The notes beneath the pieces are model-generated. The model ran no database searches, was not told the DNA's origin, and saw only the letters and a program-made list of their open reading frames with translations. A stretch of 64,000 nt of DNA from a virus, in the IMG/VR virus record IMGVR_UViG_3300027791_000009, positions 32,001-96,000 of that record, one strand, 5' to 3'. The number at the start of each line of letters is the position of its first letter. Position 1 is the stretch's first letter. Positions 34,025 to 44,408 of this stretch are shown here, piece after piece. A program made the translations under genes and the position numbers.

Positions 34025-34504
34025 ATGGACGAACAAACAATCTTATGGATTTCCAGATTAAAAGAAGAAATCCAATCACACACTAGATACGAAGCAAGAC
34101 AACTATTTTACATAGATGAAGAAGGACTTGACCGTGAGGTTAAAGACCATATGTCTTATGGAGAATGGATAAGAGAGTACGATAGATTTAAAACTATTAA
34201 GGTGGAAGGCTTAGAAGATGTAGCCTGGTTAAAAGAAGTTTTAGACGAAGTAGTATTGAATATCACAGGAAAGAAAAGACAAGATATTCATTTATTTGTA
34301 AATCAGAAACCAGGTATTAGTTTTAAAGAACATAAAGATGATAAAGATGTTTACTTATATGTTGTCAAAGGCAAAAAGAAAGTATCTTTAGATGGTGTTA
34401 TTAAACCAGTATATGATGATGAAGGAATATTCATAGAACAAGGTGTAAAACATTATGTTGAAAACGAAGCAGATACTTGGGGGTTAAGTATAGGAGTTAT
34501 ATAA
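34025..34504 (+). CDS. cupin/JmjC-like oxygenase
   Basis: IHLF, SFKEHKDDKDVYLYVVKGKK, IEQGVKHYV (HxD...H). Confidence 0.7.
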   Translation: MDEQTILWISRLKEEIQSHTRYEARQLFYIDEEGLDREVKDHMSYGEWIREYDRFKTIKVEGLEDVAWLKEVLDEVVLNITGKKRQDIHLFVNQKPGISFKEHKDDKDVYLYVVKGKKKVSLDGVIKPVYDDEGIFIEQGVKHYVENEADTWGLSIGVI

Positions 34505-35535
34505 TGAATTGGATGTTTTATTTAAAAACAACCGAAACCTGCAACTTGAATTGTAAACATTGTTTTACTTCAGGTTCAAATGGTCCTAAAGTCTATTGGA
34601 ATCCAGATAAAACCATTAAGTGGTTACAAGATTTCAGAAAATACAATTTTCACAAACACGATACAGCACATTTAGAACTACACGGTGGCGAACCGTTTTT
34701 AGTTCCTGTGTCTGAAATGCAATATGTCTATGAGAACACAAAAGATTTGTGGATTCAACAATCAATGGGCATAACTTCTAACTTAACATTTAAACTAAAA
34801 CAAGAACACATTGACTTCATTAAAGGTCCACTTAAAAATAGATGTGGAACTAGTTGGGATCCTAACATAAGATTTGCAAATGAGAAACAAGCAAACTTAT
34901 GGCGTAAGAATGTAGAGACTTTAATTAGTGAAGGTGTTGATATTAAACTCTTCATATCAGTAACCAAAGACACAATTAGAATTGAACCTATTGAATTACT
35001 TAAATGGGTTAAAGATTTAGGTGTAAAAGAAATGGCACTTGAAAGATTGACTGGAAATGGTAATGCAAACTTGCATCCAGAGATATTTCCTAGAAATATA
35101 GAACAAGATAAGTGGTTTTTAAAAATGCACGAGCAATCTATTCAGTATAACACAAGAGATTGGTTTGATAATGAGTTTTTTGAAACAATTTACTCAAAAT
35201 TTGATACTGGTTCAACAAAAGAAGGCACTTTCTGCCGAGATTGTGAACAAAAACTATTTACACTTAACGCAACTGGCACAATAGGTGGTTGTCCTAATGC
35301 AGCTCCCGAGTTTAATTTTGGAACTATAGATGACCCTCTAGTAGAACTTATAAATAGTCCTAAGAGATTAGAAAATGTTGCTTGTGAAGTAGCAAGAAAT
35401 CCTAAATGCTTTGAGTGTGAAGTATTTAAGTATTGTGGTGGCGATTGTCACCAATTAGCATGGCAAGACGACATATGTGGCGCTCCTAAATCTCTTATGA
35501 AACACTTAAAAAAACAAAGTGAGGCGAAATGGTAA
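34504..35535 (+). CDS. radical SAM/SPASM enzyme 1
   Basis: CNLNCKHC, HGGEPF, CRDC...GGCPN, CFECEVFKYCGGDC. Confidence 0.92.
   Translation: MNWMFYLKTTETCNLNCKHCFTSGSNGPKVYWNPDKTIKWLQDFRKYNFHKHDTAHLELHGGEPFLVPVSEMQYVYENTKDLWIQQSMGITSNLTFKLKQEHIDFIKGPLKNRCGTSWDPNIRFANEKQANLWRKNVETLISEGVDIKLFISVTKDTIRIEPIELLKWVKDLGVKEMALERLTGNGNANLHPEIFPRNIEQDKWFLKMHEQSIQYNTRDWFDNEFFETIYSKFDTGSTKEGTFCRDCEQKLFTLNATGTIGGCPNAAPEFNFGTIDDPLVELINSPKRLENVACEVARNPKCFECEVFKYCGGDCHQLAWQDDICGAPKSLMKHLKKQSEAKW
35349..35356 (+). promoter_or_regulatory. internal late promoter upstream of the putative substrate gene
   Basis: Perfect TATAAATA inside rSAM1, about 170 nt before ATG35529. Confidence 0.45.
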
Positions 35536-36302
35536 CTTTAAACAACCCGATAACAAGTCAAAATATAGTTGATAGATTTGAAGAACTGGTAACAGATGTA
35601 GCAGACCACCATATTGTATGGGGTACTGATAATCTACCAGGACACTCTTCATTTACTTCTGCTGATTTTGGTGGTGTTGTTGACGGATTTGAATTAACAC
35701 TAACAGGTGTGACTGGAACTTATACAGCAGGTGAAACGGTTAACTCTACAATAACTGCAACAACTGGTATCGTAGTTAGTTATTCTAGCAATGTATTAAA
35801 ATTAAGAACAATTAATCCAGGTGCTGGTCAAACAGGATTCTTACAAAACGATATTATATCAGGCACTTCTTCAGGTGCTGTAGGTACGGTTAATACTTTA
35901 GCAGTAATAAGTGCTGTATCAATTGGTATCACAGGTTCTAATATCGGTAATGCAGGTTCAGTAATTACTGCAAACAATATTTACGGTACACTAAAAGCAG
36001 AAATGAATAATTATACTAATATCAAAAATACATACGCTATAGTTAGTATGACAGGTGCAGGAACACAATATTCGGATACACAAATTGCACACTTAACAAC
36101 TGCACAAAGAACAACATTAAATCCATCACAACCTAGTAGTTTACAACCTGGTCAAACAATTGACGATACAAATTTAGAATCGTTTATGTCGAGCCTTGCA
36201 AACGCATATTCTACTGAAAGAGGTAACACTTATACATTAACAAAAACTATATGTCATAGTAGCTGTCATAGTAGTTGTCACGGAAGTAGAGGAAGAAGAT
36301 AA
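35529..36302 (+). CDS. virion-type protein with C-terminal (CHxS)3 RiPP-like core; putative rSAM substrate
   Basis: Thr/Ser/Gly-rich body with a baseplate-like GETV/FLQNDIISG module; ends ICHSSCHSSCHGSRGRR. Confidence 0.75.
   Translation: MVTLNNPITSQNIVDRFEELVTDVADHHIVWGTDNLPGHSSFTSADFGGVVDGFELTLTGVTGTYTAGETVNSTITATTGIVVSYSSNVLKLRTINPGAGQTGFLQNDIISGTSSGAVGTVNTLAVISAVSIGITGSNIGNAGSVITANNIYGTLKAEMNNYTNIKNTYAIVSMTGAGTQYSDTQIAHLTTAQRTTLNPSQPSSLQPGQTIDDTNLESFMSSLANAYSTERGNTYTLTKTICHSSCHSSCHGSRGRR
36252..36287 (+). repeat. three 12-bp tandem repeats encoding CHSS/CHSS/CHGS
   Basis: TGTCATAGTAGC TGTCATAGTAGT TGTCACGGAAGT. Confidence 0.9.
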
Positions 36303-43251: not shown

Positions 43252-44035
43252 AGCGTTTCTTATAGGCAATGGTCAAAGTAGAAAAGGTTTTAAATTTTCT
43301 ACTATTCAAGGACGAGGTGTTATCTTAGGTTGTAATAATCTGTACAAAGATTTTGCACCTGACATTTTAGTTGCAATGGACCATCCTGTTATGCACAGCA
43401 TTTATCATTCAGGTTATAGTTATACGGCTAAATGTTATTTTAGAGATTGGAATCCTGTACCACACGAACATTACGAGAATATGGTAAATGGTTTCTTTCC
43501 TGGGTATAGACATATAAGAGCAATTAGGAATTCAGGTTTACTTGTAGAAAATCAAAGAGTAGGTTCTAATAGTTTTGTTTTGCACGGATACAATGATAAA
43601 GAAACAGGAAAGAATATGGTCAACATTAGTTGGTTGACAGGTGATAAAGTAAAAAGTTTTACAGATTTAGTTGACGGTGGTGACGAGTTAACTTGGGCAA
43701 CAGGTCCTGCAAGTGGTTTTGTTGCTTGTAAAGAAGTAGCAGAATTGAAAGAAGTTTACCTAATAGGACACGACATATATAGTATGTCAAATAAATTTAA
43801 TAACATATATGCTGGACAACCTTATTACAAGTCTGATAAACACCCTAGTCAATATTACTTACAAAATTGGATATTACAATGGCGTCAACTCTTCAAGTCG
43901 TATCATTCGGTAAAGTTTTATAAAGTAAATAGACAGAATATGTTAAATGTTAATATTCCGGAATGGAATGAATGTAAGAATGTGGAGTATATAAGTTATG
44001 AGAGAATGGAAACTCAAACAAGAAGTATATCATAG
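43241..44035 (+). CDS. Maf/MptE-like (glycosyl)transferase-fold protein
   Basis: AFLIGNGQSR, GCNNLYKDFAPDILVAMD, ATGP, VYLIGHD. Confidence 0.55.
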   Translation: MANRAFLIGNGQSRKGFKFSTIQGRGVILGCNNLYKDFAPDILVAMDHPVMHSIYHSGYSYTAKCYFRDWNPVPHEHYENMVNGFFPGYRHIRAIRNSGLLVENQRVGSNSFVLHGYNDKETGKNMVNISWLTGDKVKSFTDLVDGGDELTWATGPASGFVACKEVAELKEVYLIGHDIYSMSNKFNNIYAGQPYYKSDKHPSQYYLQNWILQWRQLFKSYHSVKFYKVNRQNMLNVNIPEWNECKNVEYISYERMETQTRSIS

Positions 44036-44408
44036 ATTAAATCCTACTCATAAAGATACATTGAATGATAAGGAGATATATCTTATATGGGAAGATAATG
44101 ATATTATTCTTAATGCGAAAAGACATTGGGTAGAACAAGTCGAAAGATTTATCTATCCAGCAAAGAGTTATTGTGTGGCGATATGTTATGCAAAGTGGAT
44201 AGAGAGAGATTATGGTGATAAGTTTTACGATTTGTTAAACGACAAGGACTTGTTATTTGGCAATGACCCATACTTTGAAGTATATAAAGGAAAGGAACAC
44301 ATTTATGACCCAATCATAAAAGCGTTTCCTAAAGATGAACAAATGGGAATGATACCTGATATTAGAGACTATTATGAAAAAGAAATTAGATATGATGGCA
44401 AAATCTGA
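43998..44408 (+). CDS. hypothetical protein, last gene of the cluster
   Basis: 136 aa; YPAKSY, LL.D.DL...NDPYF. Confidence 0.7.
   Translation: MREWKLKQEVYHRLNPTHKDTLNDKEIYLIWEDNDIILNAKRHWVEQVERFIYPAKSYCVAICYAKWIERDYGDKFYDLLNDKDLLFGNDPYFEVYKGKEHIYDPIIKAFPKDEQMGMIPDIRDYYEKEIRYDGKI

Follow-up and report, generated by a model that had tools for sequence, protein, structure and literature searches.

The closest described counterpart of the locus analyzed here is the bacterial HXS antiphage system, a set made up of the HxS-repeat protein HxsA, the radical-SAM enzymes HxsB and HxsC that mature it, and HxsD (Li et al., Nat Commun 2026, PMC13128918). Maturation of HxsA by HxsB and HxsC was described there as a change of +8 Da on SHRSS, the modified motif and the basic repeats were needed to block DNA entry, and 99.7% of HXS systems were assigned to Pseudomonadota (PMC13128918). 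Further comparisons are offered by the maturases of three-residue cyclophanes (triceptides), radical-SAM/SPASM enzymes that are reported to act on aromatic-x-x motifs including those with His, e.g., HtkB and HaaB (PMC11499958). The enzyme anSME acts on Cys or Ser of a protein. In QhpD/QhpC and the ranthipeptide/sactipeptide maturases (PapB; CteB, 5WGG), SPASM enzymes join the sulfur of Cys to other side chains, as a thioether in the case of QhpD/QhpC. The substrate of QhpD is a protein subunit and not a RiPP, and the sulfatase motif is C/S-x-P/A-x-R.

Here we examined a window of 64,000 nucleotides of viral DNA (positions 32,001 to 96,000 of IMG/VR record IMGVR_UViG_3300027791_000009), whose carrier is a marine T4-like phage. 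The first-pass annotation had described 14 packed genes at 34025-44408, and the ORF listing of the window contains exactly 14 frames there, all on the + strand, and adjacent frames share 1 to about 100 nt or are separated by 1-9 nt. Four of the products are radical-SAM enzymes with a Cys-rich C-terminus; the others are a cupin, two 2OG-oxygenase-type proteins, the tail protein g3 and six proteins of no known family, as follows.

34025..34504, + strand: g1, first cassette gene, cupin-fold protein of 159 aa (Cupin_2 30.9 bits, cut-off 27.2)
34477..35535, + strand: g2, radical SAM/SPASM enzyme; ORF listed from TTG 34477, likely start ATG 34504
35349..35356, + strand: TATAAATA, core of a T4-type late promoter, within g2 and 180 nt ahead of the start codon of g3
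35529..36302, + strand: g3, 257-aa tail protein with a conserved alpha/beta scaffold, an inserted beta-barrel of ~75 aa and a terminal tail
36252..36299, + strand: tail codons C-H-S-S-C-H-S-S-C-H-G-S-R-G-R-R, stop codon directly after
36302..36967, + strand: g4, 221 aa, no known family (phrog_20767, E 5e-57), usual neighbor directly downstream of the tail gene
36969..38084, + strand: g5, 371-aa protein without a family match, frequent member
38093..39145, + strand: g6, radical SAM enzyme with a SPASM-like Cys cluster (CxxxCxxC, PF04055, phrog_1802)
39045..39704, + strand: g7, 219-aa protein without a family match, lineage-restricted, start uncertain
39695..40789, + strand: g8, radical SAM/SPASM enzyme, most conserved of the four (PF04055, DynA, anSME)
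40767..41231, + strand: g9, small 2OG-Fe(II) oxygenase-type protein (Asp_Arg_Hydrox E 0.016, weak)
41197..41742, + strand: g10, 2OG-Fe(II) oxygenase-type protein (2OG-FeII_Oxy_3 25.8 bits, cut-off 27)
41739..42299, + strand: g11, 186-aa protein without a family match, close relatives only (5 homologues among the loci)
42280..43251, + strand: g12, radical SAM enzyme whose Cys cluster at the C-terminus is reduced (CxxxCxxC, PF04055, phrog_1802)
43241..44035, + strand: g13, 264 aa, lineage-specific, possibly an MptE/Maf-like transferase (phrog_30607 only)
43998..44408, + strand: g14, 136-aa protein of no known family, core member (phrog_20737, E 3e-38), last gene before a late promoter at 44421

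The likely ATG start of g2 overlaps the g1 stop by one base, and the listed g7 frame overlaps g6 by 101 nt. A literature search found no description of this cassette; it is a set without prior study, and its closest known relative is the HXS system, of which it is not a member.

Four CxxxCxxC radical-SAM enzymes with C-terminal Cys clusters had been called from the sequence. As read from the ORF translations, the motif lies near the N-terminus of g2 (C22/26/29), g6 (C24/28/31), g8 (C11/15/18) and g12 (C16/20/23); all four proteins matched PF04055, with the cut-off of 29.5 reached by g8 only (29.6 bits; g6 24.1 bits, g12 25.6 bits), and all four belong to phrog_1802 (E 1e-65 to 7e-31; g6 9e-41, g12 7e-31), which bears out the enzyme call. 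The Cys clusters held for g2 and g8, whose families each have 8 invariant C-terminal Cys, and in SPASM-like form for g6 (CX2CX5CX3C), while g12 has a reduced set of CX2CX5C plus one further Cys only (both patterns read from the translations). With the SPASM model TIGR04085 (cut-off 27), g2 passed at 33.1 bits, g8 (24.5) and g6 (19.8) scored below, and g12 gave no match. Several family scores used here lie below curated cut-offs, namely PF04055 for g2, g6 and g12, SPASM for g6 and g8, and 2OG-FeII_Oxy_3 for g10.

The radical-SAM enzymes grouped with peptide and protein maturases and not with QueE, MoaA or NrdG, their best full-length matches being DynA, anSME, PapB and the anSME structures 4K36-39. 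For g2, full-length matches to DynA, anSME and PapB had E values of about 1e-11, and g8 matched DynA over its full length at 6.9e-11; against the PDB, the g2 family profile matched anSME 4K37 (E 4.2e-9, positions 12-318) and the g8 family profile matched anSME 4K36 (E 1.3e-7, positions 2-321). MoaA matched only the N-terminal core of g8 and gave weak matches (E 1.5e-4 to 7.7e-4) across most of the length of g2. The g8 protein is 62% identical to gp165 of Atu_ph07 and 55-57% identical to Bdellovibrionota genes, and the paralogues within the window share at most 26% identity, over few partial BLAST stretches of at least 85 residues. In a tree of 117 rows, the four enzymes fell into four separate clades with support of 98-99.6 (g6 98.2, g12 99.6), a test that is partly circular, since sequences were assigned to groups by their best BLAST hit; viral rows number 19-28 per clade, and rows from bacterial assemblies 5-6. 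Judged from their sequences, the four enzymes appear to be old, separate orthologous clades that are non-redundant. Since the CxxxCxxC motif starts at residue 11-24, there is no room for an N-terminal RRE domain in any of them.

The repetitive Cys/His/Ser tail noted at first pass is present at the C-terminus of g3, which ends in CHSSCHSSCHGSRGRR, the repeats being encoded by three 12-nt units at 36252-36287. A degenerate DNA pattern of the tail matched once in the window and in 0 of 100 shuffles, and the tail is not a product of chance. The ending (C-H-x-S)x3-R-x-R-R was found in 99 stretches of viral contigs, RSL2 and Atu_ph07 (both jumbo phages) among them. Bacterial genome contigs gave a further 16 stretches, of which 9 belong to predatory Bdellovibrionota; every in-frame tail copy found had zero residues between RR and the stop. 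In an alignment of 24 relatives (A2), 12 of the last 16 residues were invariant (C242, H243, S245, C246, H247, S249, C250, H251, S253, R254, R256 and R257), with bodies just 28-91% identical. Among 140 tails from the fetched loci, repeat position 4 was Ser in 420 of 425 repeats under a search pattern that also allowed Thr, Arg, Cys and Trp at this position, and the tails ended in RGRR (123), RSRR (12) or RARR (5). The same tail is borne by unrelated bodies: the g3 type, a 127-aa tandem type and Gly_rich_2 fusions. The structure model of g3 had a pLDDT of 86 overall and 51-63 in the tail, and a BFVD search with its beta-barrel insert matched structural, fibre and baseplate proteins of cyanophages (E 2e-5 to 1e-3; 77-83 columns in ranks 4, 6, 8, 11 and 18, rmsd 1.3-2.7). 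Sequence similarity between g3 and the 2033-aa structural protein of the same window was not significant (E 0.59).

In T4-like phages, jumbo phages and Bdellovibrionota alike, the tail is found linked with the four enzyme clades. At viral loci with a tail protein of more than 145 aa, at least one of the four radical-SAM types was present in 60 of 62 and lay within 3 kb in 59 of 62. Where a viral locus extended 4 kb or more in both directions from the tail gene (16 loci), a radical-SAM homologue was present in 14. For the small-protein class (tail protein of 145 aa or less, usually in tandem pairs), a radical-SAM gene was in the fetched stretch at 14/34 loci and within 3 kb at 4/34, so that a rule of constant adjacency is false for this class. 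The CHxS-tailed protein is part of the homologous clusters of RSL2, Atu_ph07 and dozens of viral contigs, and the gene order g1-g2-tail-g4-(g5)-g6...g8-g12-g14 recurs in RSL2, Atu_ph07 and metagenomic loci. Two refuting tests set in advance, one on the family grouping of the radical-SAM enzymes and one on the presence of the tailed protein in homologous clusters, were run, and neither refuted the proposal. The putative enzyme-substrate link is based on this co-occurrence.

Three cupin/2OG oxygenases had also been proposed, and this proposal stood: g1 is above the Cupin_2 cut-off, g10 is just under that of 2OG-FeII_Oxy_3, and g9 is assigned through its homologues, 4/4 of which reached the 2OG-FeII_Oxy_3 cut-off when tested (27.1-34.6 bits), with its own residues H-x-D ... 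H ... R in the expected order (read from the translation). In RSL2, Atu_ph07 and many viral loci, the gene immediately before the g2 orthologue is a g1 homologue, and g10 homologues are present in viral and Bdellovibrionota cassettes. The g4 gene was within 300 nt of the tail gene at 52/62 loci with a tail protein of more than 145 aa; its family has 599 representatives at E<=1e-3, and its structure model had a pLDDT of 92. Homologues of g5 occurred at 38 viral loci or more, and a 364-365-aa protein stands in its place in Bdellovibrionota cassettes with an N-terminus that is alike by eye (BLAST not significant). Homologues of g14 were found at viral loci and in 4/4 Bdellovibrionota cassettes, and those of g7 only in T4-like relatives. 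The Maf/MptE-like call for g13 kept a weak lead, a language-model neighbor cluster (Atlas) with PF01973 on 13% of its members (score 0.92), and found no Pfam or NCBIfam match in g13 or in 2/2 homologues. As had been claimed, no protease or transporter family matched any of the 14 proteins at E<=0.1 in Pfam/NCBIfam profile searches, and no immunity gene is among the 14 genes.

Late expression, which the first-pass annotation had put forward, is supported by the conserved T4-type late promoter motif before the tail gene. Within 400 nt upstream of the tail gene, TATAAATA occurred at 31/53 viral loci, at -176 to -197 or -33 to -42, compared to 0/51 for g2, 0/64 for g4, 0/36 for g8, 0/31 for g12 and 6/50 for g6 (0-6 loci for any other cassette gene; background 0.025 per 400 nt). 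In the window, this motif falls in g2 codons L-I-N-S, a stretch without conserved family consensus, and the next copy is at 44421, just past g14. These data support the view that g3 is probably expressed late and apart from the enzymes, and the specificity of the motif for the tail gene suggests that more copies of the tail protein are needed than of the enzymes.

The cassette had been placed between two fibre-gene blocks, which is roughly right, since the upstream side has T4-type wedge genes of the baseplate, a structural protein of 2033 aa with DUF4815 and a fibre-like protein of 433 aa, and the downstream side a 578-aa protein matching tail-fibre PHROGs and a 1238-aa CBM_5_12 protein. In Bdellovibrionota, the cassette was chromosomal in 4/4 genomes examined, with ychF-, pth- and prs-like neighbors (by eye, from N-terminal sequences), and in all four, proteins of 320-413 aa that combine a pilin-like N-terminus with a Peptidase_S74 chaperone domain are encoded within 1-5 kb of the cassette (Pfam confirmed three of them, at 36.6-51.9 bits; the remaining four are identified only through BLAST matches to these three). 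Fibre-gene neighborhoods are thus found in both phages and predators. From this context, the structural-type beta-barrel insert and a passage on Atu_ph07, g3 may be a virion part; according to that passage, a virion-protein cluster of Atu_ph07 starts at CDS 170, which equals the RefSeq tag number of the Atu_ph07 tail protein, a match by number alone.

As in the cassette, a whole protein and not a short peptide carries the tandem His-x-Ser triads in a basic context in HXS, more than one radical-SAM maturing enzyme is encoded alongside, and the function is at the phage-envelope interface in HXS and would be so in the cassette. However, g2 and g8 matched the HxsB and HxsC models only weakly (E 6.9e-8 and 4.5e-7) and far below the family cut-offs (31.7 vs 370 and 29.0 vs 267.9), and the NCBIfam search gave no match to HxsA or HxsD models in the cassette. 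In the cassette, an invariant Cys stands before each triad, and the repeats lie at the very C-terminus with R-x-R-R after them; g3 lacks a signal peptide or peptidoglycan-binding domain; four radical-SAM clades and oxygenases stand against the two radical-SAM enzymes described for HXS; and the carriers are phages and Bdellovibrionota, whereas HXS is concentrated in Pseudomonadota. The closest solved structure for the g2 and g8 profiles, at nearly full length, is anSME (TIGR03942; PDB 4K36-4K39), which shares the minimal radical-SAM plus SPASM build without an RRE, and both residues on which it acts are invariant in the g3 tail. In contrast, g2 scored 41.8 bits on TIGR03942 (cut-off 349), the sulfatase motif is not in the g3 tail, no sulfatase gene is present, and anSME is one enzyme where the cassette has four. 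The H-x-S of the tail fits the aromatic-X-X pattern cross-linked by triceptide maturases, and the YhhB, FxsB, XyeB and AmcB models weakly matched g2 and g8, mostly in the N-terminal half (the AmcB alignment with g2 reached residue 189); all scores were far below cut-offs, the precursors there are short leader-bearing peptides, and a cross-link in the cassette is only proposed. PapB matched g2 at 9.6e-11 and CteB 5WGG matched the g2 profile at 2e-8, but these scores too were below cut-offs, and the usual acceptors of this group (Asp, Glu, Asn) are not in the g3 tail; QhpD was not among the best 25 of 50 (g2) and the best 25 of 43 (g8) matched families.

Overall, we consider the cassette a dedicated protein-maturation block whose enzymes modify the tail of the late, fibre-associated g3, with a probability of roughly 60%, and the maturation of HxsA by HxsB and HxsC is a precedent in its favor. 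The enzyme type, the conservation of the tail and the late motif agree with the first interpretation of the locus, although its label "RiPP-like" is loose: with its 257 aa g3 is a folded protein, an RRE does not fit into the enzymes, and there is no sign of peptide excision. The cassette resembles protein maturation (anSME, QhpD, HxsA) more than natural-product synthesis. A classical RiPP pathway, in which a short modified peptide would be excised from the C-terminus of g3 and set free as a bioactive natural product, seems very improbable; the core-like C-terminal repeat, the several radical-SAM/SPASM maturases and the RiPP maturases DynA, PapB and YhhB among the best family matches are set against the lack of a protease, exporter or immunity gene among the 14, a "leader" that would be a folded conserved domain of 150-240 aa, enzymes without an RRE, a late gene and a structural context.

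It is unlikely that the tail is a metal or iron-sulfur site, with g3 as scaffold, metallochaperone or electron donor and the radical-SAM enzymes acting on a small molecule, a neighboring fibre protein or another product of the cassette, e.g., g4 or g5. Phage fibres and spikes with His-based metal sites are established, Cx3Cx3C with adjacent His is a plausible ligand set, three Cys and three His could bind metal without covalent chemistry, the tail is predicted to be flexible (pLDDT 51-63), radical-SAM enzymes require a reductant, and the small tandem class often has no enzyme gene next to the tail gene. However, the position-4 Ser is as invariant as Cys and His, a simple metal site leaves the fixed basic R-x-R-R unexplained, a tail on unrelated bodies is more in keeping with a portable modification tag than with a redox protein, and the tail-gene-specific late promoter suggests more copies than enzymes. 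Quite unlikely, too, is that matured g3 is an HXS-like effector in the infected cell instead of a virion part, which may block DNA entry of competing phages (superinfection exclusion) or counter host defence through modified basic HxS repeats. Three H-x-S triads, the basic context and radical-SAM neighbors are as in HxsA, and T4 phages encode entry-blocking exclusion proteins according to the HXS report (PMC13128918); but HxsA is processed and exported, while neither g3 nor the Bdellovibrionota tail proteins show a signal peptide-like N-terminus or a peptidoglycan-binding domain, the g3 gene has a late promoter and sits in a baseplate/fibre block, the predatory bacteria keep the cassette beside S74 fibre genes, and the HXS family models miss their cut-offs.

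In the maturation reading, g3 would be made late in infection from its own late promoter as a folded scaffold showing a structural-type beta-barrel and an exposed 16-residue tail, (Cys-His-x-Ser)x3-Arg-x-Arg-Arg. The anSME-like g2, g6, g8 and g12, which have no leader-recognition domain, may act on this tail in the cytoplasm by hydrogen abstraction from Cys, Ser or His side chains, possibly yielding thioether or His-to-Ser (three-residue cyclophane type) cross-links, or formylglycine-type oxidation followed by condensation; we infer both the tail as substrate and the type of chemistry. The cupin and the two 2OG oxygenases may perform oxygen-dependent tailoring, e.g., hydroxylation of His or Arg, with g4, g5 and g14 as putative helpers. 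Finished g3 would have a rigid, cationic, possibly metal-binding end, and would join or serve the baseplate/fibre apparatus contacting the host envelope. S74 fibres are phage-like prey adhesins in Bdellovibrio (PMC10769870), and the position of the cassette beside phage-like fibre genes in predatory bacteria suggests that a protein used to attack cells is probably chemically finished by the cassette.

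As judged from its sequence, the source phage is a T4-like myovirus, and its record comprises 119,869 bases with an estimated completeness of 82%. PHROG matches placed the tail tube cap, the baseplate wedge subunits and the wedge/tail-fibre connector at 8810-26363 of the window, and fibre-like proteins come after a DUF4815 protein, 3' of these baseplate genes. The large proteins in this region are as follows:

Window 26376-32477, + strand: 2033-aa structural protein with a DUF4815 domain (E 2e-51), directly 5' of a fibre-like gene and the cassette.
Window 48417-52133, + strand: 1238-aa protein with five stretches of the carbohydrate-binding family CBM_5_12 (E 1e-25); it is probably a fibre or adhesin that binds the host.
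Window 59989-62184, + strand: 731-aa protein matching RCC1-like ('regulator of chromosome condensation') PHROGs; a probable structural protein or adhesin of beta-propeller type.

The packed gene block described in the first-pass annotation was recovered in the ORF listing as 14 + strand ORFs (g1 to g14) at 34025-44408, separated by small gaps or overlapping slightly. The G+C content is 0.29-0.33 over 36001-44000, compared to 0.35-0.38 in the flanking structural genes, which fits a cassette that is mobile within the host-recognition region; cassettes moving within this region are remarked on for pelagimyophages in the accessible part of PMC7029224.

The four radical-SAM enzymes named in that annotation (g2, g6, g8 and g12) all carry, within residues 11-31, the CxxxCxxC motif that binds the SAM-cleaving 4Fe-4S cluster. 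Their PF04055 scores were 23.0, 24.1, 29.6 and 25.6 bits, respectively, against a cut-off of 29.5 that only g8 passes, and all four matched phrog_1802 ('radical SAM domain-containing protein') with E-values of 1e-65 to 7e-31. SPASM and twitch domains lie at the C-terminus and bind one or two auxiliary clusters through 7-8 Cys, among them CX2CX5CX3C. The C-terminal Cys clusters that had been reported for all four enzymes were found in g2, which passes the SPASM model TIGR04085 (33.1 bits, cut-off 27), and in g8 (24.5 bits, CX2CX5CX2C) and g6 (19.8 bits, CX2CX5CX3C), while g12 gave no TIGR04085 match, is reduced to CX2CX5C plus one Cys, and may at best be twitch-like. Eight C-terminal Cys are invariant in the g2 family and eight in the g8 family. 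The top full-length family matches were the SPASM maturases DynA, anSME and PapB, at about 1e-11 and far under the equivalog cut-offs. When family profiles of g2 and g8 were compared with the PDB, the closest solved protein was anSME (4K36-39), nearly over its full length, followed by CteB, ChlB and then MoaA, for g8 over the N-terminal core only and for g2 at much weaker scores; the profiles were needed, as g2 and g8 alone yielded no PDB matches with phmmer. The first-pass annotation had named grouping with QueE, MoaA or NrdG as the outcome that would speak against its proposal; the enzymes did not group with these, whose models matched mainly the N-terminal core and all with low scores, and a cofactor- or nucleotide-modification role was rejected. 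By sequence comparison, the build of these enzymes is that of protein-acting enzymes such as anSME. Since the cluster-binding motif starts at residue 11-24, there is no N-terminal RRE domain.

The four enzymes of the window are at most 26% identical to each other, over a few partial BLAST stretches of 85 or more residues, and each shares 40-62% identity with its jumbo-phage and Bdellovibrionota counterparts. In a 117-row tree, every one of the four groups was a single clade (support 98.2-99.6) holding both viral and bacterial-assembly rows, in a clade test that is partly circular as the group labels were taken from best BLAST hits. The linkage of four old, separate clades to one tail therefore suggests that four activities, distinct and long diverged, have been retained alongside it.

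The three cupin/2OG oxygenases of the first-pass annotation correspond to g1, g9 and g10, as indicated by family scores, iron-triad residues or both. 2OG-Fe(II) oxygenases and cupins are double-stranded beta-helix proteins with an H-x-D/E...H iron triad. The g1 protein reached 30.9 bits on Cupin_2 (cut-off 27.2) and g10 25.8 bits on 2OG-FeII_Oxy_3, just under the cut-off of 27; g9 was weak alone, and all four of its homologues tested reached 2OG-FeII_Oxy_3 (27.1-34.6 bits). The H-x-D and the distal His are visible by reading the g9 and g10 sequences. BLASTP gave no significant match of g9 to g10 or to a bacterial 2OG-FeII_Oxy_5 protein.

As for the remaining genes, the five unknowns (g4, g5, g7, g11 and g14) indeed match no described family, only unnamed PHROGs, and an Atlas language-model search with g14 yielded nothing usable. 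No PF01973 match was found for g13 at E<=0.1 or for its two homologues at E<=0.05, and the sole Maf/MptE lead comes from an Atlas neighbour cluster, where PF01973 occurs on 13% of the members. The g4 protein belongs to a family of 599 representative clusters. Its model (pLDDT 92) gave a best Foldseek E-value of 0.13 against the PDB and, in a wide VIA-align search, a best Z of 4.1 over residues 1-54 only, which is nothing convincing and does not imply a new fold. Six representatives of the g4 family (P0195, P0203, P0209, P0212, P0216 and P0218; 472-604 aa) have long acidic N-terminal extensions. The longer g4-domain proteins (391-604 aa) have acidic N-termini and no CHxS tail, and so offer no evidence from fusions for a link between g3 and g4; complex prediction for g3 with g4 scored 0.00, a value obtained without controls that counts neither for nor against binding.

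The 257-aa protein encoded by g3 (35529-36302) ends in CHSSCHSSCHGSRGRR. A degenerate DNA pattern for (C-H-x-S)x3-R-x-R-R matched once in the window and in none of 100 shuffles, and the same pattern was found in 99 stretches of a viral contig collection and in 16 stretches of one-genome-per-species bacterial contigs. The motif was in frame in 98 of the 99 viral loci, and in every copy found RR was directly followed by the stop codon. Among 140 tails, 136 have three repeats, three have four and one has five; the end is RGRR in 123, RSRR in 12 and RARR in five. Ser occupies position 4 in 420 of 425 repeats, a position at which the search pattern also permitted Thr, Arg, Cys and Trp. The tailed protein is kept in homologous clusters, as in the phiKZ-like Ralstonia phage RSL2 and the Rak2-like Agrobacterium phage Atu_ph07, whose tail proteins are otherwise dissimilar and each lie directly 3' of a g2 orthologue. 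A word-based search with the last 48 residues retrieved 492 tail-bearing protein clusters of 141-450 aa, and among the 120 clusters listed there was no Pfam domain and no name besides 'hypothetical protein'. Megablast of the whole cassette block against GenBank phages found nothing, and tblastn with g3 gave no match there, though homologues exist, probably because of repeat filtering or divergence of the body.

The body of g3 gave no NCBIfam or Pfam match at E<=0.1 and no significant BLASTP match to the 2033-aa protein (E 0.59). It aligns with relatives of 177-187 aa apart from an insert of about 75 residues, which is a beta-barrel in the predicted structure (pLDDT 86) and which, in BFVD, resembles modules from structural, fibre and baseplate proteins of cyanophages (29 matches at E<=1e-3). 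Against the PDB, the g3 model gave nothing decisive: its matches, at E 0.04 at best, were to small beta-barrels, among them a phage baseplate-cup chain. There are three longer forms of the tail protein, two of which consist of the same scaffold plus a Gly_rich_2 domain. The tail thus forms a portable end-piece, and the conserved scaffold that bears it is able to display variable domains. The accessible part of the Atu_ph07 paper places most virion proteins in clusters that include 'CDS 170-215'; the RefSeq tag of the Atu_ph07 tail protein is gp170, in a numbering that may differ from the CDS numbers of that paper. We infer that g3 is a component of the virion.

As determined by tblastn and ORF-level BLAST on all fetched loci, the genes recur in the order g1, g2, tail, g4, (g5), g6, ..., g8, g12, g14, and g10 is frequent. 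Where the tail protein is over 145 aa, 60 of the 62 loci contain one or more of the four radical-SAM types, with a radical-SAM gene within 3 kb in 59 and g4 within 300 nt of the tail gene in 52. A second class consists of small proteins of about 127 aa (about 124-140 aa) encoded in tandem pairs; their body is unrelated, and they too end in (CHxS)x3-RGRR. Examples, by fetched locus, are:

L007 6370-7142: small tandem tail proteins.
L012 1111-1874: small tandem tail proteins.
L026 8037-8794: small tandem tail proteins.
L118 1846-2681: small tandem tail proteins.

In this class a radical-SAM gene was present in the fetched stretch in 14 of 34 loci, several of them 5-8 kb away. Since the small tandem class breaks the rule, a radical-SAM gene that is always adjacent is a property of the g3-type class only.

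The sequence TATAAATA, the T4 late-promoter core, is present at 15 sites in the window (14 on the + strand), a number that four of 100 shuffles also reached. Compared with ORF starts, about 12 sites lie shortly 5' of a + strand gene start. Examples are:

Window 3761, 8774, 18085, 23211, 24870, 44421, 45068, 47863, 52129, 55380 and 62185: TATAAATA motif.

Because the motifs are mostly on the + strand and shortly before gene starts, the phage appears to use T4-type late promoters, which would delimit its late transcription units. Scans for sigma-70-type promoters and terminators gave the same result as shuffles (83 sites versus a mean of 79). Between 24870 and 44421 there is a single motif, at 35349, inside g2 and 180 nt before the start of g3, and the next motif, at 44421, comes after the last cassette gene. 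Of 53 g3-type tail genes in viral loci, 31 had a motif in the 400 nt 5' of them, positioned between -176 and -197 or between -33 and -42, against a background of 0.025 per 400 nt per strand. The corresponding counts for the other genes were 0/51 (g2), 0/64 (g4), 0/36 (g8), 0/31 (g12), 0/31 (g10), 0/17 (g14), 1/36 (g1), 1/38 (g5) and 6/50 (g6). Loci lacking the motif before the tail gene were mostly of the jumbo-phage type, which is not expected to use T4 late promoters. The motif at 35349 encodes L-I-N-S in a stretch for which the g2 family consensus has no conserved residues, which suggests that selection acts on the DNA and not on the protein. We read 35349 as a putative late promoter dedicated to the tail gene and those that follow.

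Six marine metatranscriptome runs contain at least half of the sampled words from the window. One run (X1) held a single 18,072-nt contig over 30000-47905 with 83 differing letters, and another (X5) held short pieces, mostly 99% or more alike to the window; these are contigs in RNA libraries that show neither transcription nor expression level, and they were excluded as expression evidence. In X1, the 18-kb contig, of depth 131, stops at 47905, and another, of depth 402, begins at 47876, right at the late promoter motif at 47863; coming from contig data only, this break is a hint and no measurement.

Nine of the 16 bacterial stretches came from assemblies titled Bacteriovoracaceae, Halobacteriovoraceae, Pseudobdellovibrionaceae, Bdellovibrionaceae or Bacteriovoracia, and some of the tail-bearing Bdellovibrionota contigs are 0.2-1.3 Mb long. 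Neighbourhoods of 32-40 kb around the cassette were evaluated in four of these predator genomes. The cassette comprises g2, the tail gene, g4, g6, g8, g12 and g14 in all four, and BLAST recovered g10 in three and g1 in two. In all four, it lies among ordinary chromosomal genes (ychF-, pth- and prs-like ones among them, recognised by eye from their N-termini), and phage structural genes are absent from the 32-40 kb. Approximately 1-5 kb from the cassette, again in all four, there are proteins of 320-413 aa with a pilin-like N-terminus and a Peptidase_S74 'chaperone of endosialidase' domain, three of them detected by Pfam (36.6-51.9 bits) and four others by BLAST to those three (E 1e-14 to 1e-23); one gave a weak N_methyl match. 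The coordinates, by Bdellovibrionota locus, are:

L119 13765-15006, - strand: S74-pilin protein.
L122 5993-7063 and 7508-8470, both - strand: S74-pilin proteins.
L123 and L125: similar ORFs.

S74-terminated fibres are described as phage-like prey adhesins of Bdellovibrio in the accessible part of PMC10769870. At 320-413 aa, the S74-pilin proteins are far shorter than the MAT fibres described for Bdellovibrio. In phage and predator neighbourhoods, the cassette thus accompanies genes of the fibre type that serve contact with Gram-negative cells.

Proteins of 512-525 aa with similar N-termini lie inside the bacterial cassettes:

L119 15370-16908, - strand: 512-525-aa-type protein.
L123 15149-16726, - strand: 512-525-aa-type protein.

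The one scanned, from L119, gave a weak Glyco_transf_8 match (E 0.0047, under the cut-off). Given that g13 may be a transferase, there is a hint of glycosylation as a possible, optional addition to the pathway.

The cassette was compared with three known systems. [quoted passage not shown] However, g2 scored 31.7 bits on TIGR03978 (cut-off 370), g8 scored 29.0 bits on TIGR03977 (cut-off 267.9), and the HxsA and HxsD models were matched by none of the 14 proteins (for g2 and g8, among the best 25 families), so that the HxsB, HxsC, HxsA and HxsD features are all lacking and assignment to HXS was rejected. The resemblance to anSME in overall fold is real, and sulfatase substrates carry the motif C/S-x-P/A-x-R; this motif is absent from the tail, the TIGR03942 score was 41.8 bits against a cut-off of 349.45, and an anaerobic sulfatase maturase was rejected on both counts. 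Classical RiPP clusters combine a short leader/core precursor with an RRE (PqqD-like) and a leader protease and/or exporter. The 'precursor' g3 is instead a folded protein of 257 aa, and the 14 proteins contain no PqqD/RRE match and, in agreement with the first-pass annotation, no protease, peptidase or transporter match (family search, E<=0.1). The cassette thus falls outside the classical RiPP scheme, and the RiPP-like label of that annotation is loose.

The best-supported reading is that the four radical-SAM enzymes and the oxygenases would modify the exposed tail of g3, and that the modified product would serve the baseplate/fibre apparatus. This reading draws on the HXS precedent, where HxsB and HxsC act as maturases of the HxS-repeat protein HxsA, with +8 Da on SHRSS (accessible part of PMC13128918). 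From related SPASM enzymes we infer candidate chemistries that could include thioether links from Cys, His-to-Ser cyclophane links, and oxidation of Cys or Ser to formylglycine followed by condensation. A more far-reaching proposal, to which we give roughly one chance in five, is that several unrelated phage lineages and predatory Bdellovibrionota share an enzymatically forged 'warhead', a polycyclic, cationic and perhaps metal-loaded C-terminal knot made by the four radical-SAM enzymes from (Cys-His-x-Ser)x3-RxRR, which would sit on a fibre- or baseplate-associated protein and be required for recognising or breaching the Gram-negative envelope. In this tentative proposal, the HXS defence effector of bacteria, with its radical-SAM-modified HxS repeats in the periplasm, would be a host-side counterpart that applies related chemistry at this interface too.

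Radical-SAM maturation of a repeat-bearing protein is a kind already known; tailoring of a cell-attack protein common to phages and predators is undescribed in the searched literature. In that search, which lay outside subscription journals and supplements, we found no description of radical-SAM covalent tailoring of a phage particle or attack protein, nor of the cassette as such. The FLC6, S13 and RP12/RP31 papers merely list radical-SAM, cupin and 2OG genes, those on Sinorhizobium phage AP-J-162 and Pseudomonas phage MIJ3 do not mention them, and 'radical SAM' has no occurrence in the accessible part of the jumbo-phage overview of Iyer et al.

The cassette is widespread, with its 492 tail-protein clusters and 599 g4 representative clusters. 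Abundant marine T4-like phages have it in their host-recognition region, cultured jumbo phages that infect plant pathogens (Ralstonia, Burkholderia and Agrobacterium) have it too, and predatory bacteria carry it beside their own phage-like fibres. Since cultured carriers exist, the hypothesis is directly testable. If the tail is modified, it would represent a new class of protein modification and four unassigned radical-SAM activities, and would open a way to study how the Gram-negative envelope is engaged by phages and predators, with a possible link to HXS defence.
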